Shown here: one piece after another, positions 11,901 to 33,848 of the stretch | How the letters are laid out: each line of letters begins with the position of its first letter | Position numbering within the stretch: position 1 is the first letter of the stretch | Translations under genes and position numbers: made by a program | Assembly: GCA_963169345.1 (NCBI GenBank) | Contig: CAUJCT010000047.1 | Location: 47,076-111,075, forward strand | From: Bacteroidota bacterium | GTDB lineage: Bacteria > Bacteroidota > Bacteroidia > NS11-12g > UBA955 | Length of the DNA: 64,000 nt | Reading direction: 5' to 3' | Notes under the pieces: generated by a model | The model's database searches: none | What the model saw: the letters and a program-made list of their open reading frames with translations, nothing else | Told to the model about the DNA's origin: nothing

Positions 11901-14184
11901 TTAAAACTATATCGTTTGAACAGGTGTCTCTGTCTGCTCCTGCAAATGCTGTTGTAACCGTATCCGATAAAGTAATGACAACAGTATCGAGTCCGGCATT
12001 GCAAAATCCGTTTCCAATGCTCCACTGATATTTATAAGTGCCCAGTCCTGACGGAAATACAAGGGTATTGTATACCGTATCATTGACAATACTATCCGAA
12101 GGTCCCGATATTTTAGTCCATTTGCCAGTGCCCGGCCATGGAATATTACCATCCAGAACAAATGAAGAAGTGGTATCGGGTAAACATCTGTCATCACCGG
12201 CATCAGCAGGAATGGCAGCAATATCCGAGGTAATAAATACATCAACAGTATCTGTATTAAATCCGCAGGAATTATAAACTTTCCAGATAAATTTATAGTT
12301 AATCGTAGAGTCCATTCCTGTGACTCTAGTAACATTGCTGTTGCTATCAGAGAATACCAGGCCGCTATCGGGTATTGCTTTCCATACACCCGAACTTCCG
12401 GGATTGGGCATATTGCCTTGTAAATGCAGGACAGAAAGAAAACAAATAGTTTGATCTGAACCACCCGCAGCTGCTGCAGGTAAGGTGTCTGCTACTAAAA
12501 CAGCCACATCATCCTGTGTTGGGTAACACGATTGTCCTCCGTTGATTAACCACCTGTAATTGTATAAGCCACCACTTAAGTTTCTGACAGTTGTGATGTT
12601 GTTTAAACTATCATCAATAATTGAGGAGGTCGGGCCGCTGTTTTGATACCAGGTACCAACTCCGGGAGCCGGAATATTAGCAGCCAGCTGTGTTGTGTCA
12701 ACATTGCAGTCTAAGCGTTGAGCACTTCCCGCATTAGCATCATCAGGCTGATGCGAAACAATGAACTTTACATCTTCCTGTACGCCAATACAACTTTGAC
12801 CTGTACCTGATGTTTGGGTAATTCTGAAAATATAAACGCCTGAACTATCCATACCGCTGACACTTGTATAGCGACTCAGTGTATCGCTGCCATTATATAA
12901 TCCTGTTAATGCCAGTTTAGGTCCTGAAACCTGCGAAAAGTTAGTGTATAATCCACCTGTAAAATTATATCTCAATATAGCAGTATCCTGATCGCAAGGC
13001 AATATGCGGTCTTGAAATACATCCAGTGTTGGTGTATCAAGATAGCTAATGGTAAATAAAGCCGTGCTTCTGCAACCGGTAAGTCCATTGGCCATGATGT
13101 ATTGAAATTGATAAATATCACCGCCCTGACCTCTTAAATTGCTAACAGTAGTTGTAGGTGCATTTACAGGATTAAAAACAACAGTTGTTGGTCCACCGAG
13201 TTGTATCCACGAACTTGTATCATTTCTGTAAATTGGCACAGCGCCATTGAGAGTTACTGAAGTTGGGCGGTCGCATAAATAAATGGTTTGTCCGACACTT
13301 GGAGAAAGTTCACCCAATGGGGGAGGAACCTTTACTTTTATTGTATCTACGCCACTTGCGCAGGGACCATTCACTCTGTATTCAAACATGTAAGTCCCTT
13401 GAATCATAAAGCTGACATTACCTGTATTGTTATTGGATACCAAAAGCGGATTAGACGGCCCACTGATGGTTGTCCATTGCCCGGATTGACCTCCCAGTCC
13501 TGTTCCGGAATAAGAACCGGTTAATACAGTTGTCTGGTAAACAGAATAGCACTGACTCAGTTCTATGCTATCTCCACTCCAGATGGAAACTGGATTATAA
13601 CCGCCGTAATTGATATATTGAACATCGTCAGAAGAGCTACAGCCATTGGAGTTTGAAATTGTCCAGGTTAATAAACTGAGACCACCATTTGTTGCTCCTA
13701 AAGCAATTTGAGATTGCGGATTATTAAGTTGACCAATACTGGCACTTCCGTTGTTGACAGTGTAGGTCCAGACACCAGTTTCACCACTTCCGGGTGTATT
13801 GGCTGCCAGGGTGTCATTGCCCGGACACATGGATTTATCAGGTCCCGCATTGGCTCTCGTTACACCAAGAATAGTTATCGTAACAATGTCGTTGGCGTTA
13901 GAGCCATCCTGACAGCGATTGCGAATATTAAAAACCATGGTACCCGGAACTTTTCCTGAAATCTGAGTATTTAGGCTATTTGGACTATTAATGATAACAG
14001 AAGGGCCTGATACCTGAGTCCATGTTGATGAACCAACTAAATTACCTGCACGGTTACCTGTTAAAGTGATGGTATCATTGACACAATAGGTGCGGTCTAC
14101 ACCAGCGTTAACTGTGCAGTTTTGTGCCTTTAATGCGGAAAGGCTAATGGATAAAAGAAATAGTGATAGTAGTAGTTTTCTCAT
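8953..14184 (-). CDS. giant (1743 aa) T9SS type-A cargo / adhesin-like cell-surface protein with at least 9 internal repeats
   Basis: Signal peptide MRKLLLSLFLLSISLSALKAQ. Recurrent ~80-aa modules marked by W(T/S)Q(V/I)SGPS. C-terminal Por-secretion tail (VYPNPTNGAFNLQY...VYDSKGVLV...GLYHVVVQ). Confidence 0.8.
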   Translation of the reverse strand: MRKLLLSLFLLSISLSALKAQNCTVNAGVDRTYCVNDTITLTGNRAGNLVGSSTWTQVSGPSVIINSPNSLNTQISGKVPGTMVFNIRNRCQDGSNANDIVTITILGVTRANAGPDKSMCPGNDTLAANTPGSGETGVWTYTVNNGSASIGQLNNPQSQIALGATNGGLSLLTWTISNSNGCSSSDDVQYINYGGYNPVSIWSGDSIELSQCYSVYQTTVLTGSYSGTGLGGQSGQWTTISGPSNPLLVSNNNTGNVSFMIQGTYMFEYRVNGPCASGVDTIKVKVPPPLGELSPSVGQTIYLCDRPTSVTLNGAVPIYRNDTSSWIQLGGPTTVVFNPVNAPTTTVSNLRGQGGDIYQFQYIMANGLTGCRSTALFTISYLDTPTLDVFQDRILPCDQDTAILRYNFTGGLYTNFSQVSGPKLALTGLYNGSDTLSRYTSVSGMDSSGVYIFRITQTSGTGQSCIGVQEDVKFIVSHQPDDANAGSAQRLDCNVDTTQLAANIPAPGVGTWYQNSGPTSSIIDDSLNNITTVRNLSGGLYNYRWLINGGQSCYPTQDDVAVLVADTLPAAAAGGSDQTICFLSVLHLQGNMPNPGSSGVWKAIPDSGLVFSDSNSNVTRVTGMDSTINYKFIWKVYNSCGFNTDTVDVFITSDIAAIPADAGDDRCLPDTTSSFVLDGNIPWPGTGKWTKISGPSDSIVNDTVYNTLVFPSGLGTYKYQWSIGNGFCNAGLDTVVITLSDTVTTAFAGADRDTCSNDIVLRGNQPVYGLGHWSLLIGQINGNMLYPDSFITPVTDLAQGTYIYRWTIDNGACGISHDDVKINVANPTTVPQALTGDLWCYPNTIVIQANRITKGRGYWSLQGYNPTQATINRIDSSYAVVSNLAAGIYTFKWNSVNPMGICPDLYSLRQDTIVFPADAGTDRNLCKQYNITLTGTTNSSGFWRQVSGDSAQLDSLTPNKALASQLTSAGSPYKFMYEIRPRYSCAASFDSVVIRVFDSTTSPFAGVDQNLCDADTVQLAANDVSPDDGVWSQVSGPSTVTFSNSTSYNSQFYNIVGGSYLLKWKSSNLGCERSDFVVIRNFDSSVLADAGADTSVCPPFTQLNAIFNSTNSASWSQVSGPNTAVIRSSVNPGSTIENLIKGTYKFEWRVNNGYCPANMDTVEITVPYDQPTTAIAGNLANICDNDSFIMNGNSPLIGSGLWTQITGDSVNIVDDTLYNTVLYNLDTGVSRFVWTIENGNCSSSDTMEIQVDELPSAALASGDSGYCLYNPVIVTATQPGIGTGQWSQINGSGANILTPNNLSSYITGLNAGQYQFIWSVINGVCPPSKDTVEISIDSIPSLSDAGPDINTCLGSAYFSATTPSSGTGTWHFISGIDTPYVLSPHNPGSFVNNLDSGRYTYEWEVARGGCKSRDTMRIILDDPQPNDQCLDPDDISNPGGTYFGDLCGAKRFGAEPNTAGYNACNTIFYRFHTVGYNYRKQINITILNTTDCYYGLRLSLFDSGSCPGLGMQHDTTIIANGTGLYTFDSLKSNQGYILVIDENRNPCAKTECTLTFNLSGNALPVDLLNFEVKPVSKGVADILWTAHDDKQIVQYIIRKTVNSETTELGRMQGQMSSGSSQYFMRDANVTVYPVVYELLGLQTNGTLKSFGTRVLFSNDIMGNLFVYPNPTNGAFNLQYTGDDSYRLTNIKVYDSKGVLVYEQDKIRLSNLPSIDTHDWSEGLYHVVVQIGDKTISLPIVVSK

Positions 14185-15062: not shown

Positions 15063-17108
15063 ATGGTGACGAAAGAAATATTGCTCAATGCCTATACCCT
15101 CATGTGTAAAGCCCGCGCAATGGCGGCTATTTACGAAGAAAACAGACCTATAACCAAATACGTGCACTCTACCAGCAAGGGACATGAAGCTATTCAACTG
15201 GCTGCAGGTTTTTTGCTTAAGTCTATAGATTACGCAGCCCCCTACTATCGTGACGAAAGTTTGCTTCTGGCAATGGGTATGACGCCATACGAGCTTATGC
15301 TGCAATTGCTGGCTAAAGCCGATGACCCTTTCTCCGGCGGTCGTTCTTATTACTCTCACCCTTCTCTTAATCGCGATAATATGCCTAAGATGCCGCACCA
15401 AAGCAGTGCTACAGGCATGCAGGCTATTCCGGCTACCGGTATGGCACATGGTATTAAATACAAAGAGTCGCAAAAAATGATATACACGGCTGAAATGCCT
15501 GTCGTTTTATGCAGTATCGGCGATGGTAGTATGACCGAAGGTGAAGTGAGTGAAGCCTTGCAAATGGCTGTACTCAAAGAGTTGCCAATTCTGTATTTGG
15601 TGCAGGACAACGACTGGGGAATTTCTGCAAGTGGTGATGAAATGAGAGCAATGGATGCTTATGAGTTTGCTGCAGGCTTTAAAGGACTGAGAAGAGCACG
15701 AACAGATGGCAGTGATTTTGTAACCAGTTATGAGGATGTGAAATCGGCAATTGACTGGGTGCGAAAAAATAGAAAACCAATGCTCCTCCACGCCAAAGTA
15801 CCTCTGTTGGGGCACCATACCAGCGGCGTGAGAAGTGAATGGTACCGCGACGATCTTGAAGTGGATTTGCAAGATGATCCATTTCCTAAACTTAAAAATA
15901 CCTTGCTCGAACTCGGTGAATCTGAATCTTTGCTCGAGCAAATCAATAATGATGCAGTTGCTGAAATTGCAGATAGTTTTAACAGAGCCGTAAATGCGGC
16001 AGATCCAAGTCCGGAAAGTCTGTATCTGCATGAATTTGCCCCAACTCCTGTCACCGAAGAAAAAGGAACCAGGTCACCAGAAGGTCGCGAACCTGTTGTT
16101 ATGGTAGATGCTGCCCTCTATGCCTGCGATGAAATATTGAAGAACCATCCGGAAGCTTTGTTGTATGGTCAGGATGTCGGAGTAAGACTCGGTGGTGTAT
16201 TCAGAGAAGCCGCTACATTGGCTAAAAAATATGGTAAAGACAGGGTGTTCAATACCCCAATTCAGGAAGCTTATATTGTTGGTTCAACCGTTGGTATGAG
16301 TGCAGTGGGTTGTAAGCCTATAGTTGAAATACAATTTGCAGATTATATCTGGCCAGGTGTCAATCAGCTTGTTGAAGAACTCTCTAAAAGTTGCTATTTG
16401 TCCAATGGAAAATATCCCGTTCAGTCTTTGATTCGTATACCTACAGGTGCTTATGGTGGTGGCGGTCCTTATCACAGTGGCACCGTCGAAAGCAGTATAC
16501 TTCAGATAAAGGGTATTAAGGTGGTTTATCCCAGCAATGCTGCGGATATGAAAGGCCTGCTCAAAGCTGCATTCTACGACCCTAATCCGGTTGTGATGTT
16601 CGAACACAAGGGATTGTATTGGAGTAAAGTGCCGGGAACAGAAGCGGCTAAATGCCCTGAACCTTCCGAAGATTATATCATTCCTCTCGGTAAAGCCCGC
16701 ACTGTTCTTGAAGCCTCTCCTGAAGCTGTTAAATACGGTGAATCAATAGCAGTTATTACCTATGGTATGGGTGTTTACTGGGCTTCAAATGCCGCCAAAC
16801 AATACGAAGGTAATGTGGAAGTTGTTGATTTAAGAACTTTGAATCCTTGTGATGACGAAGCCATTTTTGAAGCAACTAAAAAGCATGGTAAAGTGATGGT
16901 GTTAACTGAGGAAACTCTGAGAAATTCATTTGCCGAAGCTATTGCCGGTCGCATACAAAAAAATTGTTTTCAGTATCTCGATGCTCCGGTAGAAATCATA
17001 GGTTCAGCTAATTTACCTGCTGTGCCTTTGAATTTGGGACTCGAAAAGGAAATGCTTCCCAATGCAGATAAAGTAGCGGATGCTATAGGCCGTTTGCTGT
17101 ATTCATAA
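15063..17108 (+). CDS. fused alpha/beta E1 component of a 2-oxoacid dehydrogenase complex (branched-chain/pyruvate type)
   Basis: 681 aa. The N-terminal half has the TPP-binding alpha-subunit motifs. The C-terminal half has the transketolase-like beta-subunit motifs (YGQDVG...GGVFR, EIQFADYI). Confidence 0.8.
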   Translation: MVTKEILLNAYTLMCKARAMAAIYEENRPITKYVHSTSKGHEAIQLAAGFLLKSIDYAAPYYRDESLLLAMGMTPYELMLQLLAKADDPFSGGRSYYSHPSLNRDNMPKMPHQSSATGMQAIPATGMAHGIKYKESQKMIYTAEMPVVLCSIGDGSMTEGEVSEALQMAVLKELPILYLVQDNDWGISASGDEMRAMDAYEFAAGFKGLRRARTDGSDFVTSYEDVKSAIDWVRKNRKPMLLHAKVPLLGHHTSGVRSEWYRDDLEVDLQDDPFPKLKNTLLELGESESLLEQINNDAVAEIADSFNRAVNAADPSPESLYLHEFAPTPVTEEKGTRSPEGREPVVMVDAALYACDEILKNHPEALLYGQDVGVRLGGVFREAATLAKKYGKDRVFNTPIQEAYIVGSTVGMSAVGCKPIVEIQFADYIWPGVNQLVEELSKSCYLSNGKYPVQSLIRIPTGAYGGGGPYHSGTVESSILQIKGIKVVYPSNAADMKGLLKAAFYDPNPVVMFEHKGLYWSKVPGTEAAKCPEPSEDYIIPLGKARTVLEASPEAVKYGESIAVITYGMGVYWASNAAKQYEGNVEVVDLRTLNPCDDEAIFEATKKHGKVMVLTEETLRNSFAEAIAGRIQKNCFQYLDAPVEIIGSANLPAVPLNLGLEKEMLPNADKVADAIGRLLYS

Positions 17109-17296
17109 TTAAGATTTTAATCTACTTTCGTCGTATTTGCTGTTTTTTGAGATAGATCAACACGTCTCATTTTAAGCATTTTCAGTTTGCTTAATTATTT
17201 GATTATTAGAGCAATTGCGAAATTGCCCATGATTATTTAATTTGGAAATATTTTACTAATTTCTTATATTTGTAAAAACACAGATACAGTCAGCCT

Positions 17297-18208
17297 ATGG
17301 TTAGACCCCTACTTCCTATTCTCTTCTTATGTTTGTTTTCGATATTCGCTTGTAAAAAGAAGCAAGAGGATTATCCGAATAATGTACCTAAGAATTATGA
17401 CGATGTTTCCACCGTTAAGGTAGAAAATTATATCAATCGCATCTACATTGATTTACTTGGGCGAGAGCCATTGGATGCTGAAGTCGTGCGCGATTTGCAG
17501 ATTTTAAGAGATGGAAAACTTTCTTTCGATGTTCGGAAAACGATTATCAAAAGACTGATGACTGATACGACTTTCGTGGTAGGCGACTCATCTTATAAAA
17601 GAGCATATTATCAGAGAATATATGATTTGGCCAAGGCACGCTTACTGGAAGGGGCTTCTGACGGCGATTTTTATCAGCAAATTGGAATTGCGGAGTTTTC
17701 TTTAAAGGTATCCCGACTCAATGGCGATTCAATAGGTGTATACTCAGCGATGGCTACAATTGACAGATATAAAAATGTCATTAAATCCCGCCGTGAATAT
17801 CAACTCGGACTTATCAATATTGGTGAAATGTATGCGCGTATGCTGGACAATCCGATTTACGATATTATCAATATGAATTCACTCAATTTTGTCAATGCCT
17901 CATTTGATGATTTGTTTTTCAGATTCCCGACAAGAGACGAGTTTGAAATCGCTTATGGTATTATAGAAAATGGAACAGGCGGCGCTTTATTTGGCGGTTA
18001 CGCCTCAACAAAACCAGACTATTGCCGAGTCCTGGTCAATTCAAGAGAATTTCACGAAGGCATGATTAAGTGGGCTTATCTTACTTTAATAGGCCGTGAA
18101 CCTAATACTCAGGAATCATTTAACCTCATTCAGGATTATTATCTGACTGACGATTTTCAACAAGTTCAAATTAACATTTTAGCTACAGATGAATATGCGC
18201 ATTTTTAA
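17297..18208 (+). CDS. lipoprotein with two DUF1549-like (RIYIDLLGREP / LTLIGREPNTQE) motifs
   Basis: Lipobox LFSIFAC. Two repeated R-x-Y-x-D-L-x-G-R-E-P segments. First gene of a five-gene coupled operon. Confidence 0.55.
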   Translation: MVRPLLPILFLCLFSIFACKKKQEDYPNNVPKNYDDVSTVKVENYINRIYIDLLGREPLDAEVVRDLQILRDGKLSFDVRKTIIKRLMTDTTFVVGDSSYKRAYYQRIYDLAKARLLEGASDGDFYQQIGIAEFSLKVSRLNGDSIGVYSAMATIDRYKNVIKSRREYQLGLINIGEMYARMLDNPIYDIINMNSLNFVNASFDDLFFRFPTRDEFEIAYGIIENGTGGALFGGYASTKPDYCRVLVNSREFHEGMIKWAYLTLIGREPNTQESFNLIQDYYLTDDFQQVQINILATDEYAHF

Positions 18209-18689
18209 TACAGTTGGCGTTATGGCGCTTATAATGATATTGTCTGCCTGCAAGAAAAATACCGCTAATTACGGTGTAGTTCAGGTAAGCTCTAAAGGAA
18301 CCAATCTCAATAAAGACAAAGACAAATCAAATATTGAGTTTCATAGTATTTTATCGACCAATCTGTTTCAGAAACCTTCATCCATCAATGAATTGACAGC
18401 ATTAGACCGCGTTATTCAAAGTTGTGGTGACAAGGCTCTGATCAATGAGGTCATCATCAGCAATTACATGAATAAACCCAGTGTTAAATTACCAAGCAGA
18501 GCAATGATGGTAGATTCAACCGATCGTTTTATTGAGGAAACTTACATTAGATTTTTTATCAGAAGGCCAACAGTTGCGGAGATGACCTGGTTTAAAAATT
18601 TCATCAACGCTAATAAATCCAATCCCAATTTCAGACCGGAGCTGGTGTATACTGCTTTTGCAGCTTCAGATGAGTACATGTTTTATTAA
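18189..18689 (+). CDS. small lipoprotein, DUF1549 C-terminal-like motif
   Basis: Lipobox ILSAC. C-terminal motif YIRFFIRRPTVAEMTWFKNFI...ELVYTAFAASDEY. Overlaps the previous gene. Confidence 0.5.
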   Translation: MNMRIFNTVGVMALIMILSACKKNTANYGVVQVSSKGTNLNKDKDKSNIEFHSILSTNLFQKPSSINELTALDRVIQSCGDKALINEVIISNYMNKPSVKLPSRAMMVDSTDRFIEETYIRFFIRRPTVAEMTWFKNFINANKSNPNFRPELVYTAFAASDEYMFY

Positions 18690-18700
18690 ACAACATTATC

Positions 18701-20041
18701 ATGAAAAGAAGACAATTCGTAAAAAATGCAACGGCGCTCACAGCAGGCGGTTTGGTATTGCCTTACATTTTGCCATCCGGCAGATTATTTGCCCGCACCA
18801 ATGTGCCTAAAGCTGAATATGTGGTATTTGTAATGTTTGGTGGGGGACTGAGACAACAGGATTCAATCTTACAAAGATATTTGGCAGATAGCCAGGGATT
18901 CAATATTGAAGGCAATATACTTTACAACATTTTAGAAGGCGCAGCACCTGCATCAAAAATTGCTTATGGTACAACGCCTGCTGGTCAACCTAATGGCAGT
19001 CAGCCTATCCCTAAAATTTTATCTCAATCATTGCAAAAGCAAGGCACCATTTTCGCTGAAATGCGCGCTATTTCCGGTGGTCACTATGGTGGATGGAATT
19101 CTTTGATAACAGGAAGCAGGGTAGAAGGGCAGGGTTTAAAAGTTAGGCCAATCAATCCGACTGTGTTTGAATATGCCCGTAAATTTGGAGGCTTTAAAGC
19201 TACAGATGTTTGGTTCGTTGGCAATACCATCAGCAATTCTATTCCATTGCTCAATTCCAGTAAGCATCCTGATTTTGGTCTGGAATATGGCGCTAATTTT
19301 TTTGCACCAGGTGTAACATTTGGAGGTGATGGCATCGAAGCTTTGTCCAAAGCAAAAATCTATCATCCACAAGAGGAATTGGAACCTATGTATAAGATGA
19401 AAAATTTCCTCGACAATACATTCAATATCCGCAAAGGTGAAATGCCGGGTATTAAAAATACAGATGAGGAAAAAACTCAAATCAAGGAATTTATTTCAAA
19501 CACATTTCAAAGACAAGCTGCCGGACAGATTCCTATGCCGCCTGTATCGGGTGGTGATGGCACAACAATTGGTTATGCTGCCGAAGTATTGAGAGTGTTC
19601 AAACCAAAATTACTGGTGGTGAATTTAAGTAATATCGATGGCTGTCACAGCAACTTCACCGGTTATCTGCAAGCAATGCACAAGGCCGATCATGCTATGG
19701 GCTTTTTGTGGAATTACATACAAACCCAGATTCCTGAAATGAGCGGTAAAACCATCATGTTGTTTACCCCTGAGTGTGGTAGAAATCAACAACACAATCC
19801 AGTTCAGGACGAAAACGACTGGTATGGTTATGACCACGGTGATGCCAATTCTCTAAGAGTTTTTGGTGGTATGGTCGGTATGAATGTGCCTTCTAATTTA
19901 ATGATTGGCAATGAGAGTAATCCTATTGGAAAAGTAACGGATTTTAACTTGACTATAGCTGATATTTTAGGTTACAAGGACAATGTAAAATCTGCAGGTT
20001 TAATAGATCCGGAGGCAAAAAGTTTATTTGACAGAATATGA
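18701..20041 (+). CDS. twin-arginine (TAT) exported protein, DUF1501-like / alkaline-phosphatase-superfamily-like
   Basis: N-terminus MKRRQFVKNATALTAGGLVLP is a classic Tat signal. VVFVMFGGGLRQQDS resembles the DUF1501 N-terminal metal-site region. 446 aa. Confidence 0.5.
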   Translation: MKRRQFVKNATALTAGGLVLPYILPSGRLFARTNVPKAEYVVFVMFGGGLRQQDSILQRYLADSQGFNIEGNILYNILEGAAPASKIAYGTTPAGQPNGSQPIPKILSQSLQKQGTIFAEMRAISGGHYGGWNSLITGSRVEGQGLKVRPINPTVFEYARKFGGFKATDVWFVGNTISNSIPLLNSSKHPDFGLEYGANFFAPGVTFGGDGIEALSKAKIYHPQEELEPMYKMKNFLDNTFNIRKGEMPGIKNTDEEKTQIKEFISNTFQRQAAGQIPMPPVSGGDGTTIGYAAEVLRVFKPKLLVVNLSNIDGCHSNFTGYLQAMHKADHAMGFLWNYIQTQIPEMSGKTIMLFTPECGRNQQHNPVQDENDWYGYDHGDANSLRVFGGMVGMNVPSNLMIGNESNPIGKVTDFNLTIADILGYKDNVKSAGLIDPEAKSLFDRI

Positions 20042-20979
20042 GAAAACTGAGTTACTTCTTGCTGATTGTATTAAGCCTTGCTGCCTGTAAAAAGAAGAGC
20101 AGTGATAATCCTTATGATGATTGGCAAAATACTTCAAAAGATCCAGCTATATCCGATAAGCCTATTGATGCCAAATCTATACAGGGATTGCATAAAAACA
20201 TCTTTAAACCTACCTGTTCTAACAGTGGTTGTCATGATGGCAATTTCGAACCTGATTTCAGGTCAATTGAGAGTTCTTACAATTCCTTAATCAACAGATT
20301 GAGTACGAATACCGACCCCAATAATCCTCAGTACAGTAAAAGGGTAGTGCCGGGTAATGCAGGTATCAGTATGCTGTTACACAGAATCAAGGAATTTATT
20401 CCGGGTTCTCAGGGAAAAATGCCTCTCTCAGTAGATCCCGGTAGCGATTGGAATGCTAAAAAAGATCAATATATACAGGATATTACAGATTGGATTAACA
20501 ATGGAGCGAAAGACCAGTTTGGCAATAGTCCCGAATCTATCGACTTTAGTCCTCAACTGGGTGGACTCATCGTATTTGCAGATGGTTCACCAACTCCACT
20601 CTCTCATACCGGTTATAATCCTGTGACCGTTCCGGCAGGTACATCCACTATTAAGATTATGGTAGCCTATCTGGATGATAAAACAGCAGTTAAAAGTTTT
20701 GGAGAAACTAAAATCAATTTTACATTGAACCCTTATCAGTACGATAGTACCTGGCAGGTAATGGGGGTTGAAACCAATTCATTTACGGATAAAGGTATCA
20801 GTGGTGATAATATTGAATATTGGCACAGTATCACTCTTAATGTGGCAGATATTGGTGTTTCAGGAGATGTTTTGTGGGTGAGAACGGAGACTACTGATAA
20901 TGTCAATTTGCCATTGTTTATACCATCTCCAAGTACTCCGTTTAATTTCAAAAAATACTTTGCAATTCGTTTGAACTAA
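20038..20979 (+). CDS. lipoprotein with PSCyt-like (Planctomycete cytochrome-C-like) motif
   Basis: Lipobox SLAAC. Motif KPTCSNSGCHDG...SKRVVPGNAGISMLLHRI. Overlaps the upstream stop (ATGA). Confidence 0.5.
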   Translation: MRKLSYFLLIVLSLAACKKKSSDNPYDDWQNTSKDPAISDKPIDAKSIQGLHKNIFKPTCSNSGCHDGNFEPDFRSIESSYNSLINRLSTNTDPNNPQYSKRVVPGNAGISMLLHRIKEFIPGSQGKMPLSVDPGSDWNAKKDQYIQDITDWINNGAKDQFGNSPESIDFSPQLGGLIVFADGSPTPLSHTGYNPVTVPAGTSTIKIMVAYLDDKTAVKSFGETKINFTLNPYQYDSTWQVMGVETNSFTDKGISGDNIEYWHSITLNVADIGVSGDVLWVRTETTDNVNLPLFIPSPSTPFNFKKYFAIRLN

Positions 20980-21419
20980 TGAAGAAATTAAAACTCATAT
21001 CACTGTTTTTACCTGTTGCAATGCTTTGGGGCTGCAAGAAGGATAACAAAGCTGGCGCTGCTCCTACTATCAGTTTTATCAGTGTCAGTTCAGTTGATTT
21101 AAAAGAATACAAAGACAGTCTGACAATACTGATTTCATACTCTGATGCGGATGGAGATATAGGCCAGGATGACCCGGATATCAATGATCTTAAAGTTAAG
21201 GACAGAAGATTGAGTGAAGCCGATTATTATTTTGTAAAACCTCTTGCACCGCCAAATTCAAGCATTGCAATTAGCGGAACACTTGCTATTCAAATAAAAA
21301 ATACTTTCTTACTGGGTACAGGAAACAGCGAGATTACGCAGTTTGATATTCAGTTAAAAGACCGAGCCGGGCATTGGAGTAATACAGTCAATACACCGCA
21401 GATTACAATATCGAAGTGA
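20979..21419 (+). CDS. small lipoprotein, hypothetical
   Basis: Lipobox LWGC. 146 aa. Abuts the upstream gene and overlaps the downstream gene by 4 nt. Confidence 0.5.
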   Translation: MKKLKLISLFLPVAMLWGCKKDNKAGAAPTISFISVSSVDLKEYKDSLTILISYSDADGDIGQDDPDINDLKVKDRRLSEADYYFVKPLAPPNSSIAISGTLAIQIKNTFLLGTGNSEITQFDIQLKDRAGHWSNTVNTPQITISK

Positions 21420-24400
21420 GTCGTTTGATTTCCATAAAGGCAACAATGTTGACTATGATTTTTTGCATAGCGGGAGTTGCTTTGGGTCAGACTACCTATA
21501 AAATGGGCAATGGAAAAGTATATGCCTGTAAAGGAAAATTGACGGATAGCGAAGGGAATTTATCAGCTCCAAAGAAATATGCCAACAATGAGAATTACAT
21601 TTTTACGGTATGTGTAAAGGGTGCCAGTACAATCACCATCAAATTCAACGGGACATTCTGTACTGAGAGTATTTCTGATTTTCTTAAGGTTTACAAAGGG
21701 TCCGATACATCAGGTACTTTGTTGAGAACCTATTCAGGCACCATCAACTATCCAATTTCAATCAATGCCAGTGATACCTGTCTGACTTTTTATTTTCACT
21801 CTGACGCCAATATCGTATGTGATGGTTGGGATTTAGATTGGGAGGCCAAAATTACTTCAGTACCACAGCCTAAATTCAATCCTATCGCAGACCCCAACTG
21901 TAATTCAAATAAAATTAGAGTAACGCTGGATCAAAAGTTCAATTGTGATTCAGTCAAATCTTCTAACTTTAAATTAAGTGGAGCATTAAGCACTGCAATT
22001 GCATCGGTAACAGGGATTAACTGCGACTCAAAGAACGAAACAAATACATTTGATATCACTTTTGCATCTGGACTGAATAAAAGCGGCAATTATGCACTCG
22101 ATTTTACATCTTCATTCAAAGATGCCTGCGATAGTATCTGGACAATAAAAGCCAAATTGAATTTTAAGATTACCAATTGTCCGATTACGGTCGATTTGAA
22201 ATCTGATAAACTGATTATTTGTAAAGGCAGTTGTGCCAAATTAACAGCCGTAATAACAGGAGGCAATCCTTCAAATTATGCTTATACCTGGCTATCGGGT
22301 TCTTTGACTGGAGCCACGCCCAAAACGGTATGTCCGACTTCAGATACCAGGTATATACTACAGGTTTCTGATGGTGTTTCTGTCCCTGGTTCAGATACAG
22401 TTGATATCGTTGTTGCTGACCCACCCGTAGCTCAAAATGATACCACAGTTTGTCAATCAAGTTTACCATTTAATCTCACTGCGAGTCCTTCAGGCGGCAG
22501 CTGGTCAGGAACCGGTATCATCAATGCAGCGTCGGGTACATTTTCACCGGGAGTTTCAGGTGCTGGAACATTTAAAGCTTATTACACCATTGGTTCTTGC
22601 AGAGATTCTGTACTTGTAATAGTCAGAGCTATCAGTGCCGGAACACCTAATGCTGCTTGTCCAAATTCAGCGCCATTTATGGTGACAGGTTTTACTCCGG
22701 CTGGCGGTACCTGGTCGGGCCCGAATATTACCCCGGCAGGTTTGGTTACACCTACTTCTACTCCGGGATCTTTTGTAGTTACTTACACCTGGAATGGTTG
22801 CTCGAGTAATAAAACTATAAACATCGATGGCATTAATCTGGTCAAACATTTCGATACTTTATGTAAGTCGGTACAATACGATACTTTTAAATTTTCACCG
22901 CTGGGAGGCACCTGGTCTGGGCCAAACGTCACCAATCAAAGACTGGGAATTAACCGGCCTGTCTTAGCCGGAGCGGGAAATAAAATGTATATCTACACCA
23001 TTAATGGATGTAAGGATACTTTGAGAAGATTCATTCAGGATGTTGATGCAGGTCCTGATGAAATAGCCTGTCCGGATGCAGGTCAGAGAGTCTTATTAGG
23101 TGGTACGCCTGTAGGTGGAACATGGAAAGGTAAGGGTATACTGGATGCCAGTAACGGGGTGTTTGATGCCGACTCTTTTCAGGTTCCTGGTAAAGTGACT
23201 TTTGTACAAACAACCCTAACTTACACTGCAATTAATGGATGTAAGGATGATAAAATTGTGTATCTCCGTTATACAAAGTTTTATAAAGATACGGTAAAAA
23301 ATTGTGTCAGCGATACCGCCTATTTCATGCGCTATCAGTACTTGCAGAACGACCCCTGGAATGTTTTGTTTACAGGCAGTAAAGGCATTGTTGGTAATAC
23401 GGTTTACAATCAGAAATTCAATCCTTCACTTGCCGGAAGAGGCACTTACAACACCATCATTGCAGATGGAAATGGCTGTAAGGATACTCAAATTATCTAC
23501 GTCTATCCGCGTGCCAACATTCAAAAAGACACCTCGGTTTGTATTGCTGATAATCCGTTTCAATTGTTCAATGGCGCAGGTGCAGGTATCTTTAGTGGTA
23601 AAGGTATTACCAATTCCAATGGCACTTTCAGTCCGGCAACAGCAGGCGTTGGAACTCATCTGATATTTTTTTCTCAGGCAGGAAAATGTACGGATACTTT
23701 AAAAGTTACTGTTAAACCTTTACCTGTTGTTGTATTAAATGGATTGTTGTCAAATTATTGTTTGAGAGATACTGCTATTCCTTTGTTGATTTCACCTAAA
23801 GGAGGCACATTAACCGGCCCGGGATTAATTGATACCATCTTTAATCCAAAGCTCGCCGGTACGGGGTCGCATGTCATCACTTACAAAGTAGGAACAGGCA
23901 AATGTGTACATCAAATTTCAGTGAATATTGACATCAGTGATACATTAAGATTGAGTCTGGACGTAGATAAAGATACTATATGTATTGGAACACCGGTGAC
24001 CTTTAGTACCAACAGCAGCGGCGGACTTGGGGCATATAGTTTGAAATGGGCAAGTGGAGAATACAATGTTCAGAACATCTATACTTTCCCAAAACAAACA
24101 GTCACATACAGAGCGGTCTTAAGAGATGGATGCAGTGATTCAGTCGTCAGACAAGCAACAGTTTTTGTGCATCCGCAAATGTATGGGCAGATTAATACCA
24201 GTGCCATTCAATGTTACGGAAACAAAGGAACTGCCACATTAACCATGAGCGGAGCCGGTCCTTATACGTATTTGTGGAATACCATACCTGTTCAGACTAC
24301 GCCTTCCATTACGGCAAATGTTGGTACGACTTATAAGGTGAAAGTGACCAATTCAAAAACAGGCTGTACTTATGACACCCTGGCGACCATTCCGGGATAT

Positions 24401-24940
24401 CCAAGGATCAGGGCATACTTCGCAATTTCTCCATCCGGGCAGTGTATCTACAGCAACAATCCTGTTATACAGATCATCGATTTAAGTGAAGGCGGCTTAA
24501 CGGGCACCTGGCAATACGGTGATGGTACCCAGGAGCCTTATGTAGCGGGGGTTAATCCATCTCATACTTATCCCGGAGACACCGACCAATACACCATAAG
24601 ATTAATCATCAGCAACAATGGAGGCTGCTCAGACAGTTTCAATGTCAGCATTTGCGTTTTAGATACGGTTGCTTTGTTTATACCAACGAGTTTTACGCCC
24701 AATGACGACGGCAGTAACGATGTATTTAAAATTGAATCTGGCAATGTCGCAGCAGCTTACATTCAGATTTACAACCGATGGGGAGAGAAGGTATTCGACA
24801 CAGACAATCCTAAGCAAGGCTGGGATGGCACTTATGGCGGAAATATATGTCCGACAGACTATTACGTATACGTTATCAGGTACAAGGGCAAGAAAACACC
24901 GTGGAGGTATCTGCGGGGGTATTTGTATCTGGTAAGATAA
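21416..24940 (+). CDS. large (1174 aa) T9SS type-B (gliding-motility-associated) C-terminal domain protein with Ig-like/HYR-like repeats
   Basis: C-terminus FIPTSFTPNDDGSNDVFKIE...IQIYNRWGEKVF...QGWDGTYGGNICPTDYYVYVI is the canonical type-B CTD. Repeated GxWSGxGI modules. Probable true start is M at about 21446 with signal MLTMIFCIAGVALGQ. Confidence 0.8.
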   Translation: MSRLISIKATMLTMIFCIAGVALGQTTYKMGNGKVYACKGKLTDSEGNLSAPKKYANNENYIFTVCVKGASTITIKFNGTFCTESISDFLKVYKGSDTSGTLLRTYSGTINYPISINASDTCLTFYFHSDANIVCDGWDLDWEAKITSVPQPKFNPIADPNCNSNKIRVTLDQKFNCDSVKSSNFKLSGALSTAIASVTGINCDSKNETNTFDITFASGLNKSGNYALDFTSSFKDACDSIWTIKAKLNFKITNCPITVDLKSDKLIICKGSCAKLTAVITGGNPSNYAYTWLSGSLTGATPKTVCPTSDTRYILQVSDGVSVPGSDTVDIVVADPPVAQNDTTVCQSSLPFNLTASPSGGSWSGTGIINAASGTFSPGVSGAGTFKAYYTIGSCRDSVLVIVRAISAGTPNAACPNSAPFMVTGFTPAGGTWSGPNITPAGLVTPTSTPGSFVVTYTWNGCSSNKTINIDGINLVKHFDTLCKSVQYDTFKFSPLGGTWSGPNVTNQRLGINRPVLAGAGNKMYIYTINGCKDTLRRFIQDVDAGPDEIACPDAGQRVLLGGTPVGGTWKGKGILDASNGVFDADSFQVPGKVTFVQTTLTYTAINGCKDDKIVYLRYTKFYKDTVKNCVSDTAYFMRYQYLQNDPWNVLFTGSKGIVGNTVYNQKFNPSLAGRGTYNTIIADGNGCKDTQIIYVYPRANIQKDTSVCIADNPFQLFNGAGAGIFSGKGITNSNGTFSPATAGVGTHLIFFSQAGKCTDTLKVTVKPLPVVVLNGLLSNYCLRDTAIPLLISPKGGTLTGPGLIDTIFNPKLAGTGSHVITYKVGTGKCVHQISVNIDISDTLRLSLDVDKDTICIGTPVTFSTNSSGGLGAYSLKWASGEYNVQNIYTFPKQTVTYRAVLRDGCSDSVVRQATVFVHPQMYGQINTSAIQCYGNKGTATLTMSGAGPYTYLWNTIPVQTTPSITANVGTTYKVKVTNSKTGCTYDTLATIPGYPRIRAYFAISPSGQCIYSNNPVIQIIDLSEGGLTGTWQYGDGTQEPYVAGVNPSHTYPGDTDQYTIRLIISNNGGCSDSFNVSICVLDTVALFIPTSFTPNDDGSNDVFKIESGNVAAAYIQIYNRWGEKVFDTDNPKQGWDGTYGGNICPTDYYVYVIRYKGKKTPWRYLRGYLYLVR

Positions 24941-25290: not shown

Positions 25291-26187
25291 GTGTTCATGA
25301 AAAATATTTATACATCCGCACTCATAGCCCTTATTACATTGCCGCTTACTTTAAGCGCTCAGAAAAAGGCATCTTCTCTCGATTTTGGCCTGTATCTGGG
25401 AGGTTCTAATTATATGGGCGAATTCACTAAAGGCTCTATGCCGCTTTGGGATAAAACCAAGCTGGCTGGTGGTCTGATTTGCAGATTCAATTACGGGCCT
25501 TATCTCACTTTTAAAGGTACAGCAATTTACGGGCAAATAGAAGGTTCTGATAAGAATTTTTCAGATGATGCCTACAGAAAAAGACGTAATCTGAGTTTTA
25601 AATCGGATATCGTCGAATTCTCAATTCAAGGCGAATGGAATATTCTTGGTTATGAGAACACCAGAACCTCTTATGCCTGGTCTCCATATCTTTTTGCCGG
25701 GCTTTCAGTCTTCAGATTTAACCCTAAAGCTCAATTTAATTACAATGCCGCCATTCACGATCCTACTCTTCAGGCTCAGGACGGCGACTGGATAGAACTT
25801 CAGCCTCTCGGAACCGAAGGTCAGGAAACTACTAAATTCAACGACAAAAGACGTTATGCGCTTACTCAGGTGAGCATTCCTTTTGGTTTCGGTGTTAAAT
25901 GGCAACTTAACGACCATTGGGCTTTCGGAATAGATTACGGATGGAGAAAAACTTTTACAGACTATATGGACGACGTTTCTTCCATTTATGTCGATAATAT
26001 CATCGTCGGTGGCGCCAGTGGTCCTATGGCTGTTGCTATGAAAGACCGTGCCCCGGAAGTCGGTGAATTGCCTTTCGAAAACAATGACCCAAGAGGTAAC
26101 TCTGCAACCAAAGATTGGTATATGATTGGTGGTATAACCCTTACATACAGAATCATCGGCGGCCGTCAACCTTGCTTTAATTTTTAA
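25291..26187 (+). CDS. outer-membrane beta-barrel protein (paralog 1)
   Basis: Signal peptide. Alternating amphipathic strands. FTDYMDDVS motif shared with the next gene. Confidence 0.55.
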   Translation: MFMKNIYTSALIALITLPLTLSAQKKASSLDFGLYLGGSNYMGEFTKGSMPLWDKTKLAGGLICRFNYGPYLTFKGTAIYGQIEGSDKNFSDDAYRKRRNLSFKSDIVEFSIQGEWNILGYENTRTSYAWSPYLFAGLSVFRFNPKAQFNYNAAIHDPTLQAQDGDWIELQPLGTEGQETTKFNDKRRYALTQVSIPFGFGVKWQLNDHWAFGIDYGWRKTFTDYMDDVSSIYVDNIIVGGASGPMAVAMKDRAPEVGELPFENNDPRGNSATKDWYMIGGITLTYRIIGGRQPCFNF

Positions 26188-26212
26188 TTGCCTATAGGTA
26201 CAAGCTTACTAA

Positions 26213-27043
26213 GTGTTTCAGGTTGCAAAAAAGTTCATACCGGTAGTAGTCCTTCTACTTTCATTGGATGTCTATTCTCAACGGTTCAGAAATGGAATTT
26301 CCGAAATAGGGTTTTTCATTGGGGGAGCGAATTATTTTGGCGACCTCGCTCCTGAAATTGTTCTCAAAGAAACCAAACCTGCCATAGGGCTTCTCTATAA
26401 ATACCACCACAACAAATATTACAGCAGCCGTTACCAGTTTCTCTATACTTCTATCTCCGGCTCAGATCAAAACTTTGCAGCCAATGCCTATCGCAACCTC
26501 AGCTTCGAAAATCAAATTTTTGAAATAGGTTATACCGGCGAACTCAATTTCATCGCTTTTGGCATGAATAGAAACATGAAGGAAAGTAATAATACGACTT
26601 ACCTTTTTGGTGGCTTCAATCTTTTTACCTGCAATCCAACTGCTACTTTGCCAAGTGGTGACAAAGTTGAATTAAGAGATATCGGTACCGAAGGTCAGAA
26701 ACTCAAAGGAAAAAAAACCTATGCTTTGATTCAACCTGCTATTCAGTTCGGACTCGGTTATAAATTCAATATCAAAAACAGAACTGTCATTGGGTTTGAA
26801 CTTGGATTCAGAAAAACATTTACAGATTATCTCGATGATGTCAAGGGACAATACCCCGATTACAACCAGCTGGTAGCCAAACAAGGTGTAGGTGCAGGTG
26901 AGTTTTCTCAACCTCAAACCACTCATGGCAAACCTGTCATTACTGCAGGTACAATGCGCGGCGACAATCATCTGAACGACTGGTATATGGTGGCTGGTAT
27001 AACCATCACATTCAGAAATATCATCCAAGACCCTTGCCCTTAA
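26213..27043 (+). CDS. outer-membrane beta-barrel protein (paralog 2)
   Basis: Paralog of 25291..26187: GSDQNF, ELQPLGTEGQ/ELRDIGTEGQ, FTDYLDDV, DWYMVAGITITFR. Confidence 0.55.
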   Translation: MFQVAKKFIPVVVLLLSLDVYSQRFRNGISEIGFFIGGANYFGDLAPEIVLKETKPAIGLLYKYHHNKYYSSRYQFLYTSISGSDQNFAANAYRNLSFENQIFEIGYTGELNFIAFGMNRNMKESNNTTYLFGGFNLFTCNPTATLPSGDKVELRDIGTEGQKLKGKKTYALIQPAIQFGLGYKFNIKNRTVIGFELGFRKTFTDYLDDVKGQYPDYNQLVAKQGVGAGEFSQPQTTHGKPVITAGTMRGDNHLNDWYMVAGITITFRNIIQDPCP

Positions 27044-33257: not shown

Positions 33258-33293
33258 CAAATCACAATTATATTTAAGAAAAATAAATTTATT

Positions 33294-33794
33294 ATGGATA
33301 TCAAAGAAATAGAAAACCTGATCAAATTCGTCTCTTCACAAAAAAATGTTGGTGAAGTTGAAATTGAAAAGAAAGATTTCAAATTGGTCATTCGCAAGCC
33401 TGCTAACCAAATTATACAGGCACCACAGTATATTCAGGCAACAGCTGCACCGGTACCTGCCCAATTGCCAGTTGCATCAGCACCTGCAACTCCTGCAGCT
33501 CCTGCTCAGATTGCAGAACAGAAAGAAACACCTTCTGCCGAAACAGCCGGCAACCTGGTCACTATAAAATCTCCAATGATCGGTACTTTCTACCGCTCAG
33601 CTTCTCCTGATAAACCTGCATTTGTAAGCGTAGGCGACGAAGTAAAACCTGGTAAAGCTGTTTGTATCATCGAAGCCATGAAACTCTTCAATGAAATCGA
33701 ATCTGAAGTGAGTGGTAAAATCGTCAAGGTACTTGTCGATAATGCTACTCCAGTTGAATACGACCAGCCTTTGTTCCTGGTTGAACCTAACTAA
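33294..33794 (+). CDS. accB: acetyl-CoA carboxylase biotin carboxyl carrier protein
   Basis: Pro/Ala-rich linker. Biotinyl motif CIIEAMKLFNEIESE. Confidence 0.85.
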   Translation: MDIKEIENLIKFVSSQKNVGEVEIEKKDFKLVIRKPANQIIQAPQYIQATAAPVPAQLPVASAPATPAAPAQIAEQKETPSAETAGNLVTIKSPMIGTFYRSASPDKPAFVSVGDEVKPGKAVCIIEAMKLFNEIESEVSGKIVKVLVDNATPVEYDQPLFLVEPN

Positions 33795-33848
33795 GCCTGT
33801 CCAATCCATCCTTCGGGATAACCGAATTTCATTATTTAGAAGATTACT

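Follow-up and report, generated by a model that had tools for sequence, protein, structure and literature searches.

Six open reading frames, designated P1 to P6 here, were confirmed on the + strand between positions 17297 and 24940 of the window, the 64,000-nucleotide stretch of DNA that was analyzed. They encode four lipoproteins, one Tat protein and one type-B T9SS cargo, and five of the six proteins had no current annotation. The preliminary description of this region had proposed six linked genes on the same strand, and reading of the junctions in the DNA bore this out. P1 and P2 overlap by 20 nt (ATG at 18189, TAA at 18206-18208), P2 and P3 are separated by a gap of 11 nt, P3 and P4 overlap by 4 nt with ATGA in common, and P4 and P5 overlap by 1 nt with TAATG in common. 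The last junction, at 20979, had been described as abutting; it was indeed tight, although it is actually an overlap. P5 and P6 have GTGA in common if P6 starts at the GTG codon at 21416. The start codon of P6 is uncertain, as the alternative is an in-frame ATG at 21446, which would give a 26-nt gap after P5. The consensus of the -7 promoter element in Bacteroidota is TAnnTTTG, and a candidate element of this form, TATATTTG, was read in the sequence at 17265..17272 (+ strand), 25 nt 5' of the start of P1. In 33 of 58 loci, the TAnnTTTG motif was present in the 120 nt preceding P1, compared with 12 of 221 internal gene starts.

The gene order was colinear and on a single strand in all 80 of the related loci in the best 80 carriers. 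The complete six-gene set was present in 69 of these loci, and contig ends explained nine of the 11 partial ones. Colinearity persisted down to identities of 57% for P3 and 33% for P6, and the flanks differed between loci, with no flanking gene family common to more than 15 of them. The linkage expected in the preliminary description thus held, and the six genes form one conserved cell-envelope operon. The idea that functionally unrelated genes are adjacent by chance is effectively refuted by this synteny with variable flanks, and the overlapping start and stop codons, as well as a natural fusion of three of the components described below, leave it a negligible probability. The best 80 carriers were all MAGs of uncultured bacteria, and so were all of the named homologs; the carriers seen here were uncultured Bacteroidia, and the operon is therefore not yet the tractable model that had been suggested.

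P1, P2, P4 and P5 are predicted to be bacterial lipoproteins, each with a signal peptide and a lipobox. The four signals pointed out previously were all present, reading FAC-KKK, SAC-KKN, AAC-KKK and WGC-KKD, and the lipobox Cys (Cys19 of P1, Cys21 of P2, Cys17 of P4 and Cys19 of P5) was invariant in the ortholog alignments. The peptide segments quoted in the preliminary description were also all found in the proteins.

P1 (17297..18208, + strand; 303 aa) and P2 (18189..18689, + strand; 166 aa) contain three and two helical repeats, respectively, of the type seen in DUF4214 and phycobilisome linkers, as identified from the ORFs, alignments and scans of family members. The repeat takes the form of a helical hairpin, (hydrophobic)xxLLGRxPxxxE ... 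(S/T)xEY. DUF4214 was matched by 18 of 30 P1 orthologs and 20 of 30 P2 orthologs (best 1.7e-5 for P2), and PBS_linker by 16 of the 30 P1 orthologs (best 8.4e-9). The scores across P1 and P2 were mostly under the gathering cutoffs of 23.2 bits for DUF4214 (PF13946) and 28.7 bits for PBS_linker_poly (PF00427), and P1 of the window scored 13.1 and 14.5 bits, respectively. The P1 profile also matched ApcE in the PDB (E 2.8e-5), in agreement with the reported resemblance of DUF1800 to ApcE (PMC12981691). At E<=1, 13 of the 30 P1 orthologs matched PSCyt2 (best 1.2e-4) and three matched PSD1 (best 0.083). P1 of the window reached 13.5 bits against PSCyt2/DUF1549 (PF07583; E 0.068, residues 39-93), under the cutoff of 29.8 bits. 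P2 did not match PSD1/DUF1553 (PF07587, cutoff 28.5 bits), for which one of its 30 orthologs gave a match (E 0.14), and none of the 30 P1 orthologs matched DUF1800 (PF08811, cutoff 26.1 bits) at E<=1. The DUF1800, PSCyt2 and PSD1 models landed on the same repeats as the DUF4214 and linker models. P1 and P2 are probably better described as repeat proteins of the DUF4214/phycobilisome-linker type than as PSCyt2 and PSD1 proteins. They share the helical hairpin with phycobilisome linkers, but are predicted envelope lipoproteins paired with an enzyme, with no light harvesting and no phycobiliprotein.

P3 (18701..20041, + strand; 446 aa) is a DUF1501-like protein that has an alkaline-phosphatase-superfamily fold and a predicted twin-arginine signal, and lies outside every Pfam model. 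The motif RRQFVK was read at residues 3-8 (18707..18724, + strand), and the N-terminus MKRRQFVK fits RRxFxK. R3 and F6 were invariant in 28 homologs, and RRxF[LIVM] was found in the first 15 residues of 72 of 120 homologs. The twin-arginine motif noted previously was thus present, although the Tat profile models were weak and below cutoff on P3 (TIGR01409, E 0.084). The top structural neighbours of P3 were phosphatases, sulfatases and NPPs, and the sequence identity to PafA, PhoK, NPP, S1 sulfatases and LtaS/EptA was 11-18%. The conserved site consists of His, Asp, Glu, Cys and Arg residues. We took the nucleophile and metal positions from motif comparison, with NPP/AP motifs as the reference, and not from a residue-level structural alignment, and on this presumed mapping His128 would be located at the canonical Ser/Thr/formylglycine nucleophile position, Glu358-Cys359 would substitute for the canonical Asp-His pair, and Gly would replace the first metal-binding Asp. 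These features, together with Tat export, would set P3 apart from other enzymes of the superfamily, and with His128 and Glu358-Cys359 at such positions a non-classical chemistry may be expected instead of phosphatase or sulfatase hydrolysis.

The P3 family comprised 775 representatives at 50% clustering. P3 itself did not match DUF1501 (PF07394, cutoff 27 bits) at E<=1, and one of 28 orthologs did so with an E value of 0.034. Among 42 distant relatives, 15 matched Sulfatase, 13 Phosphodiest, 10 Metalloenzyme and six DUF1501 (best 1.1e-6). The protein P0276, which passes DUF1501 with 28.6 bits against the cutoff of 27, matched the P3 family profile with E values of 3e-38 in a library of 1.84 billion sequences and 3e-45 locally, which points to homology of P3 with a protein above the DUF1501 cutoff. 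As the distant relatives matched other models more often than DUF1501, the tie to this family rests on one bridging clade and on gene context.

P4 (20038..20979, + strand; 313 aa) is composed of an N-terminal helical domain with a C-x4-CH motif (approximately residues 45-165) and a C-terminal Ig-like beta-sandwich (approximately residues 173-312). Judging from conservation, CSNSGCH at residues 60-66 (20215..20235, + strand) is a candidate atypical haem-c attachment motif, and Met128-Pro129 (20419-20424, + strand) a candidate distal ligand. The residues C60, N62, G64, C65, H66, D67, G68, M128 and P129 were invariant, and C-x4-CHDG followed by MP was present in 114 of 120 P4 homologs. The C-x4-CH spacing recognized in the preliminary description was invariant in the Bacteroidia family; it was C-x6-CH in the locus L085, and such varying Cys spacing would be equally compatible with a disulfide or metal site. 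Weak matches to a dihaem c-type cytochrome model recurred in 14 of 27 P4-family members. PSCyt1, which carries a CxxCH motif, was matched by none of the 27 at E<=1 (PF07635), nor by the P4 N-domain alone. Fold searches with the N-domain detected no structural match to any cytochrome, its profile had no match in the PDB, and the AF2 confidence of P4 was lowest exactly at the Cys motif. None of the fold searches returned a cytochrome-c fold for P4.

P5 (20979..21419, + strand; 146 aa) matches no known family, and a Pfam scan of 30 members gave no matches. Its acidic loop D-x-D-G-D-x-G (residues 56-62; 21144-21164, + strand) is invariant and looks like a Ca-binding loop. A weak P5-like protein retaining YKDGNGDLG was found in L085, and an EF-hand protein is located at the analogous place in another related locus, L082. 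P6 (21416..24940, + strand; 1174 aa) consists of a signal peptide, with its hydrophobic N-terminus MLTMIFCIAGVALGQ visible, a CUB domain (residues 38-141), Cys-rich Ig-like repeats, PKD, SprB-like repeats and a CHU_C sorting domain (residues 1089-1174; 24680-24937, + strand). The Pfam scan gave CHU_C (PF13585; 1.6e-19, 70.2 bits, cutoff 27), CUB (2e-9) and PKD_4 (1.6e-6), and the match to TIGR04131 was also above cutoff (1.2e-16, 60.6 bits, cutoff 35). With the sorting domain and the N-terminal signal peptide, P6 is a T9SS type-B cargo, as had been proposed for this unit. Its conservation was even over the full length, with many invariant Cys residues, and it was colinear in every locus reaching that far except L021 and L023. 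Type-B cargo usually has an adjacent outer-membrane partner of the PorP/SprF family. No such partner was found adjacent to P6; the two downstream ORFs are DUF6089 beta-barrels. P6 thus resembles SprB-like and other type-B cargo in its CHU_C/TIGR04131 domain and its repeats, and differs in the N-terminal CUB domain and in being locked to the P1-P5 genes instead of PorP/SprF.

P3-like genes flanked by P1-, P2- and P4-like genes were detected in the loci L081, L083, L084 and L085, and P1-P4 were found in at least 476 species genomes. The split layout is not confined to Bacteroidota, and the core also occurred in genomes of 65-70% GC. No P6-like T9SS cargo was present beside the core in L021, L023, L081, L083 and the high-GC genomes. 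P1-P4 are thus a core kept together in very different bacteria, to which P5 and P6 were added in Bacteroidia, and since the core exists without P6, P6 looks like an add-on and not the reason for the core. The occurrence of P1-P4 without P6 also argues against P1-P5 being maturation, modification or anchoring factors for P6, for example with P3 as a transferase modifying or tethering P6 at the outer membrane, in analogy to phosphoethanolamine transferases and LTA synthases, which share the fold of P3. This function is quite unlikely.

The locus L082 provided a fused version of the module. A partner protein of 902 aa, adjoining a DUF1501-scoring P3 homolog, aligned colinearly from the N- to the C-terminus with the P4 N-domain, P1 and P2. 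In hhalign, the P4 N-domain aligned with residues 35-140 including C-x4-CH (E 5.7e-4, probability 29%) and P1 with residues 566-772 (E 1.8e-4, probability 49%), both weak alone, and P2, the counterpart of the final 130 residues of the fused partner, with residues 767-894 (probability 97.5%, E 8e-12), where the alignment ends at the same C-terminal (S/T)xEYxxY. The P2 match was also obtained with hmmsearch (i-E 3.5e-10). This natural fusion supported the earlier view of the operon as a split module, and as the parts occur either separately or as one fusion, they can be argued to act together. One segment of the fused partner matched DUF1800, DUF4214, PSCyt2 and PSD1, and its orthologs carry PF00427, PF13946, PF07583 and PF08811. 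The matches of the fused partner to PSCyt2 and PSD1 were weak, and its P2-equivalent end matched the C-terminal end of PSD1 (E 0.0077). The fused partner (25.5 bits) and the P1-like protein of L083 (25.2 bits) both scored just under the DUF1800 cutoff of 26.1 bits. A cytochrome with ten CxxCH motifs is located in L082 at the operon position of P4.

The weak matches of the fused partner to PSCyt2 and PSD1, together with those of the P1 and P2 families to the same models and that of the single P3 ortholog to DUF1501, would be in accordance with bona fide DUF1549, DUF1553, PSCyt1 and DUF1501 proteins merely split into genes. However, no Pfam or NCBIfam model reached its threshold on P1-P5, so that strict membership, which the preliminary description had put to profile searches, fails. 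P1 and P2 are matched by the DUF4214 and PBS_linker models no less well than by PSCyt2 and PSD1, PSCyt1 was matched by no P4-family member, and the haem-like motif is C-x4-CH instead of CxxCH. The operon is thus very unlikely to be a set of such proteins in the strict sense.

The explanation we favor, with a probability of roughly 0.5, is that the operon encodes a metalloenzyme-cytochrome complex on a lipoprotein scaffold and is distantly related, in split form, to the modules of DUF1501 and its partners, either the DUF1800-DUF1501 pairs or the PSCyt1/PSCyt2/PSD1-DUF1501 modules of PVC bacteria. The product would be an extracytoplasmic, membrane-anchored protein assembly. P3 would be folded and metal-loaded in the cytoplasm, exported by Tat and docked onto the helical scaffold of P1 and P2, in the way that linker domains dock phycobiliproteins. 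The N-domain of P4 would hold a covalent haem through Cys60 and Cys65, axially ligated by His66 and Met128, and this haem would exchange electrons with the metal center of P3. P3 itself may carry out a reaction distinct from the classical hydrolysis of phosphatases or sulfatases. The Ig-like domain of P4, P5 as a putative Ca-binding protein and P6 as a CUB/Ig protein exported by the T9SS would link the complex to surface binding or substrate capture.

A somewhat unlikely alternative is non-redox nutrient scavenging, in which P3 is an ordinary phospho- or sulfo-esterase, the Cys-Cys-His-Met set of P4 forms a Cu/Zn site, such as that of a metallochaperone for P3, or else a disulfide, and P6 captures a polymeric substrate at the surface. 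Such a function would agree with the structural neighbours of P3 and with the Sulfatase, Phosphodiest and Metalloenzyme matches of its relatives. The lack of a cytochrome fold in the searches with P4 and the range of Cys spacing in its family from x4 to x6 are also consistent with it, and in Verrucomicrobia sulfatases often adjoin PSCyt genes (PMC5615132). It is opposed by the Gly at the first metal-binding Asp and the His at the nucleophile position of P3, as far as the mapping described above holds, and by the repeated, weak matches of P4-family members to c-type cytochrome models. The multihaem protein at the same operon position in L082 is a true cytochrome, and a cytochrome c together with a cofactor-containing enzyme would be expected to show just such a combination of signals, Sec/lipoprotein on P4 and Tat on P3; both points also speak against this alternative.

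Some Planctomycetes and Verrucomicrobia carry dozens of copies of the DUF1501 module, and the carbohydrate-binding and Ig domains of the giant PVC proteins serve surface binding or substrate capture. To our knowledge, DUF1501 with DUF1800 or PSCyt/PSD partners is among the larger conserved bacterial modules without known function. The PVC module, in which DUF1501 with a Tat signal accompanies PSCyt/PSD proteins, has been described with its function unknown (PMC3542564, PMC5615132). The operon resembles this module of Planctomycetes, Verrucomicrobia and Lentisphaerae in having a Tat-signal alkaline-phosphatase-superfamily protein beside partner modules in which a Cys-His 'cytochrome-like' motif is combined with helical segments of the LLGRxPT type. 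The associated binding domains (Ig, PKD and CBM) are also alike, and a relative of the operon has the partner fused in one protein. In contrast, no component of the operon reaches the Pfam thresholds, the partner is present as three small separate lipoproteins, the motif is C-x4-CH in place of CxxCH, the operon additionally includes a Ca-type lipoprotein and a T9SS type-B cargo, and the carriers seen are uncultured Bacteroidia MAGs instead of PVC bacteria. Operon pairs of DUF1800 and DUF1501 have also been described (PMC5122149). In these pairs, which are widespread in Proteobacteria and others, a helical partner is likewise located immediately upstream of a Tat-exported DUF1501-type gene, and the near-cutoff DUF1800 scores of L082 and L083 add to the resemblance, whereas the helical partner here is split into two lipoproteins and the C-x4-CH protein is an obligatory third partner.

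DUF1501 modules of unknown function with their partners were known previously; the broken-up variant in Bacteroidia is new. The module reaches, below database thresholds, many uncultured Bacteroidia and some high-GC lineages, and its minimal set is four parts, namely two helical repeat proteins, an enzyme and a Cys-His domain. A single repeat is common to phycobilisome linkers and to the partner families DUF1800, PSCyt2, PSD1 and DUF4214. Expression and the modelling of complexes are simpler with the small single-domain versions than with the giant PVC proteins, and as five of the six proteins are unannotated, these alignments could serve to build family models. We tentatively consider it possible that P1-P4 represent a widespread, hitherto unrecognized four-component extracytoplasmic redox system, in which P3, whose nucleophile position would be taken by His and whose metal site would consist of Glu and Cys or His, would act together with an atypical C-x(4-6)-CH cytochrome and a linker-type helical scaffold, and in which DUF1800, PSCyt2/PSD1 and DUF4214 would be one repeat family docking DUF1501-type enzymes. 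If true, this would be the first handle on the large DUF1501/PSCyt expansions of PVC bacteria.

The operon comprises six + strand ORFs in the window, encoding the lipoproteins P1 (17297-18208, 303 aa) and P2 (18189-18689, 166 aa), the Tat-signal protein P3 (18701-20041, 446 aa), the lipoproteins P4 (20038-20979, 313 aa) and P5 (20979-21419, 146 aa), and the T9SS type-B cargo P6 (21416-24940, 1174 aa). The ORF check also recovered all four lipoboxes, the RRQFVK motif and every peptide quoted in the preliminary description, confirming what it had observed. Reading of the junctions in the DNA located a 20-nt overlap of P1 and P2 (18189-18208), an 11-nt gap between P2 and P3, ATGA common to the end of P3 and the start of P4, TAATG common to the end of P4 and the start of P5, and GTGA common to P5 and P6, except if P6 starts from the ATG at 21446. 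Many genomes keep the P1/P2 overlap as well as the MNMR start of P2, and the P1-P2 tblastn hits showed a median distance of -17 nt across loci, suggesting translational coupling of the two genes. Elsewhere in the window, three ORFs at 32259-35189 (332, 166 and 446 aa) were considered as a second copy of the operon and rejected, as they encode FabH, BCCP and biotin carboxylase and the resemblance in size is a coincidence.

Pattern scanning of GTDB, with each species represented by one genome, detected a P3 relative encoded in 476 genomes. The best 80 of these carriers were MAGs without exception, and almost all bore a Bacteroidia or Bacteroidota label; several MAGs among those listed came from lake-water bins. 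The loci of the 80 were compared by tblastn with the six window proteins. Gene order and strand were identical in 80 of 80 loci, establishing the linkage expected in the preliminary description, and the synteny persisted to 57% identity of P3 and about 33% identity of P6. The complete six-gene set was detected in 69 loci; of the 11 partial ones, nine ended at contig ends, and in the loci L021 and L023 P4 was followed by unrelated genes. In these two close relatives the P5-P6 position was held by the unrelated genes at L021:6906-7652 and L023:4187-5417, which in L023 were two tandem copies encoding an approximately 200-aa lipoprotein; the add-on part may have been replaced recently. One locus, L070 (VHBA01000001.1), carries a Sphingomonadales label, yet it has the Bacteroidia-type six-gene operon with 60% P3 identity, and a mistake in binning or labelling of the public entry is the probable cause. 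The operon had also been put forward as a tractable model; with only MAGs among the best 80 carriers and the named homologs, this claim is weak.

Clustering of the flanks of the 80 loci placed the most widespread flanking families in at most 15 loci, all flanking families being housekeeping genes, and revealed no haem lyase, TonB/Sus or regulator among further linked genes. The upstream E1 dehydrogenase gene was linked to the operon in close relatives only; in the window this 681-aa ORF (15063-17108), linked in the closest genomes only, resembles a fused alpha/beta E1 component of 2-oxo-acid dehydrogenase. The -7 promoter element of Bacteroidota has the consensus TAnnTTTG. In 33 of 58 loci this motif was present in the 120 nt preceding P1, usually 20-38 nt before the ATG, whereas just 12 of 221 internal gene starts were preceded by it. 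Scans for sigma-70 promoters and terminators stayed at or below shuffle expectation and were uninformative, and an Rfam scan of the operon region returned nothing credible. From the colinearity in 80 loci, the variable flanks and the promoter motif at P1, we therefore conclude that the six genes form one operon-like module, with P1-P4 as the invariant part and P5-P6 as a near-constant addition. The operon is real and conserved.

In single-sequence Pfam and NCBIfam scans, P6 was the sole annotated protein of the six (CHU_C, 1.6e-19; TIGR04131, 1.2e-16; CUB, 2e-9; plus PKD), while P1-P5 matched no Pfam or NCBIfam model at threshold. All homologs of P3 (1265 clusters) and P4 (409 clusters) were named 'hypothetical' and were without a precomputed Pfam domain. 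The preliminary description had proposed a PSD-like operon of split DUF1549, DUF1553 and PSCyt1 modules with a DUF1501-like protein. Comparison of P1-P5 with the profile HMMs of PSCyt1, PSCyt2/DUF1549, PSD1/DUF1553 and DUF1501 gave no match at threshold, and these five proteins fell outside the proposed Pfam families by all sequence criteria tested; the proposal was borne out in architecture but not as a strict family assignment.

Just downstream of P6, a tandem pair of paralogous genes (25291-27043) encodes DUF6089 outer-membrane beta-barrels and is followed by uppS and bamA; the pair was tied to the operon in close relatives only (11/80 loci), and its identity as DUF6089 barrels led us to reject a PorP/SprF partner for P6. 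The - strand gene at 8953-14184, which lies 3 kb upstream of the operon and faces the other way, encodes a second large T9SS cargo of 1743 aa, whose type-A T9SS sorting domain (Por_Secre_tail) accompanies six PKD domains of the K319L-like kind.

P1 and P2 are repeat proteins, sharing a helical repeat, xxLLGRxPxxxE ... (S/T)xEY, present in three copies in P1 and two in P2, and both have DEYxxF/Y at the C-terminus. In Pfam scans of individual family members, DUF4214 matched 18 of 30 P1 orthologs, PBS_linker_poly 16 (best 8.4e-9), PSCyt2 13 (best 1.2e-4) and PSD1 three; of 30 P2 orthologs, DUF4214 matched 20 (best 1.7e-5) and PSD1 one. The P1 profile also matched the ApcE REP domains in the PDB (E 2.8e-5).

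The P3 family included 775 representatives at E<=1e-3 in an exhaustive profile search, and the sequence search of the PDB with P3 gave noise only. Among 42 distant full-length relatives, the models matched were Sulfatase (15), Phosphodiest (13), Metalloenzyme (10) and DUF1501 (6); P3 therefore belongs to an unmodelled branch of the alkaline-phosphatase superfamily, with DUF1501 by sequence one of several neighbouring families. The bridge to DUF1501 was P0276, a distant relative that matched the P3 profile at 3e-38 and scored 28.6 bits with DUF1501 against a gathering score of 27. The P3 fold is established, and H128, D313, H316, D330, H331, E358, C359, G360, R361, N362, D378, H379 and D381 were conserved in the orthologs. 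H128 was kept in 32 of the 35 aligned among the 42 distant relatives, and D313 (37/41), H316 (38/41), D330 (40/41) and R361 (41/41) were similarly retained; position 358 was Glu or Asp in 40/41, and the residues at position 359 were His (18), Phe (13) and Cys (5). In a mapping inferred from comparison with NPP/AP motifs, we take D313, H316 and H379 to correspond to one superfamily metal site, E358-C359 to stand in place of the canonical Asp-His pair, Gly48 to replace the first metal-binding Asp, and His128 to occupy the usual Ser/Thr/formylglycine nucleophile position.

P4 contained the conserved block P(T/S)C(A/S)N(S/A)GCHDGxFEPDFR, in which P58, C60, N62, G64 to G68 and F70 to R75 were invariant, as were RV...S...R, GxMP and WIxxGA elsewhere in the protein. 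The resulting Cys-His-Met motif, C-x4-CHDG followed by MP, was found in 114 of 120 homologs. Among 27 P4-family members, none matched PSCyt1, 14 matched the dihaem c-type cytochrome model TIGR03806 weakly (best 4.5e-4) and two matched the cytochrome c551 model; the P4 profile had no match in the PDB. The order of N-helix, Cys-x(n)-Cys-His, Met-Pro and C-terminal helix fits class-I cytochrome c with a putative haem. P5, without a match to any family in the Pfam scans, had the invariant pattern D56-x-D58-G59-D60-x-G62 ... D67 ... D75 ... D82, an acidic arrangement typical of Ca sites and hence a candidate site. We envisage that Tat would export cofactor-loaded P3, that P3 would dock on a P1/P2 scaffold, and that haem c of P4 would trade electrons with the metal centre of P3, with surface coupling through the Ig-like domain of P4, P5 and P6. 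A main rival to this redox scheme is a non-redox esterase system, in which P4 would carry no haem.

The gene context of five distant P3 relatives was compared. L081 (P0253) had a P4 N-domain only (CAYSPCH), followed by P1-like, P2-like and P3-like genes; L083 (P0258) had a P1-like gene (DUF1800 25.2 bits, cutoff 26.1) followed by P2-like, P3-like and P4-like (CLVRGCH) genes; and L084 (P0293, 65% GC) had the order P1-like, P3-like, P2-like and P4-like. L085 (P0300, 70% GC) encoded a P1-like protein with weak PSCyt2, a P2-like lipoprotein, a Tat P3-like protein (PEHGR), a P4-like lipoprotein and a weak P5-like protein (YKDGNGDLG). Its P4-like ORF (L085:5748-7367) had CAGQPGLCH, that is C-x6-CH versus C-x4-CH in Bacteroidia, and retained the flanking FEPD, MPL and WIxxGA (WIDDGA) motifs. 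Another main rival, that P1-P5 serve P6, is weakened because the core occurs without P6.

In L082, the DUF1501-scoring P0276 was preceded by a 902-aa partner (L082:3237-5942) and followed by a ten-CxxCH protein with LVIVD repeats and an EF-hand protein. The latter two, of 1026 aa and of 335 aa with eight EF-hands (L082:7197-11281), look like larger redox/Ca-binding occupants of the P4 and P5 positions. The 902-aa partner is a natural fusion, with the N-terminus IQPIFAANCGTSGCHG, then a PKD domain, and the C-terminus ...SSAEYQMY. One region of approximately 200 residues matched DUF1800 (9e-6), DUF4214 (1e-4), PSCyt2 (1.6e-4) and PSD1 (8e-3), and its nine orthologs had precomputed PF00427, PF13946, PF07583 and PF08811. 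Matches of orthologs to PBS_linker_poly were seen as well. The separately named models DUF1800, DUF4214, PSCyt2 and PSD1 seem to describe the same helical repeat and may form one clan.

The HMM of the P4 N-domain aligned with just the 15-residue Cys motif of the fused partner. With hhalign, it aligned with residues 35-140 of the fused family over 96 columns (probability 29%, E 5.7e-4), a stretch that takes in the FEPDF/ERPDF segment as well as the Cys motif. Profile-profile comparison matched P1 with residues 566-772 (probability 49%, E 1.8e-4) and P2 with residues 767-894 (probability 97.5%, E 8e-12), ending exactly at the C-terminus, and the three matches ran in colinear order. The fused protein had an invariant LPH where P4 has MP, a correspondence that fits a putative axial-ligand position. 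The matches of the P4 N-domain and P1 are weak and would not stand alone. Combined with the strong alignment of P2, the colinear order, the conserved Cys motif and the location next to a P3 homolog, they build a good case for the P4 N-domain, P1 and P2 as a split version of one partner protein.

DUF1501 proteins occur with PSCyt1, PSCyt2 and PSD1 proteins in a PVC module with Tat signals, for which a role in electron transfer has been suggested but is unproven (PMC3542564, PMC5615132). DUF1800-DUF1501 operon pairs have also been described (PMC5122149), and DUF1800 resembles ApcE (PMC12981691). We found no report in the literature that characterises DUF1501, DUF1800 or PSCyt functionally. The operon resembles both the PVC DUF1501/PSCyt and the DUF1800-DUF1501 modules in architecture, although it fails the Pfam sequence criteria itself. 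It differs from the DUF1501/partner systems by two additions, P5 and the T9SS cargo P6, which were found in Bacteroidia loci only, except for the one weak P5 look-alike in the high-GC L085. The operon is best filed as a new, split variant at the edge of the DUF1501/partner systems.
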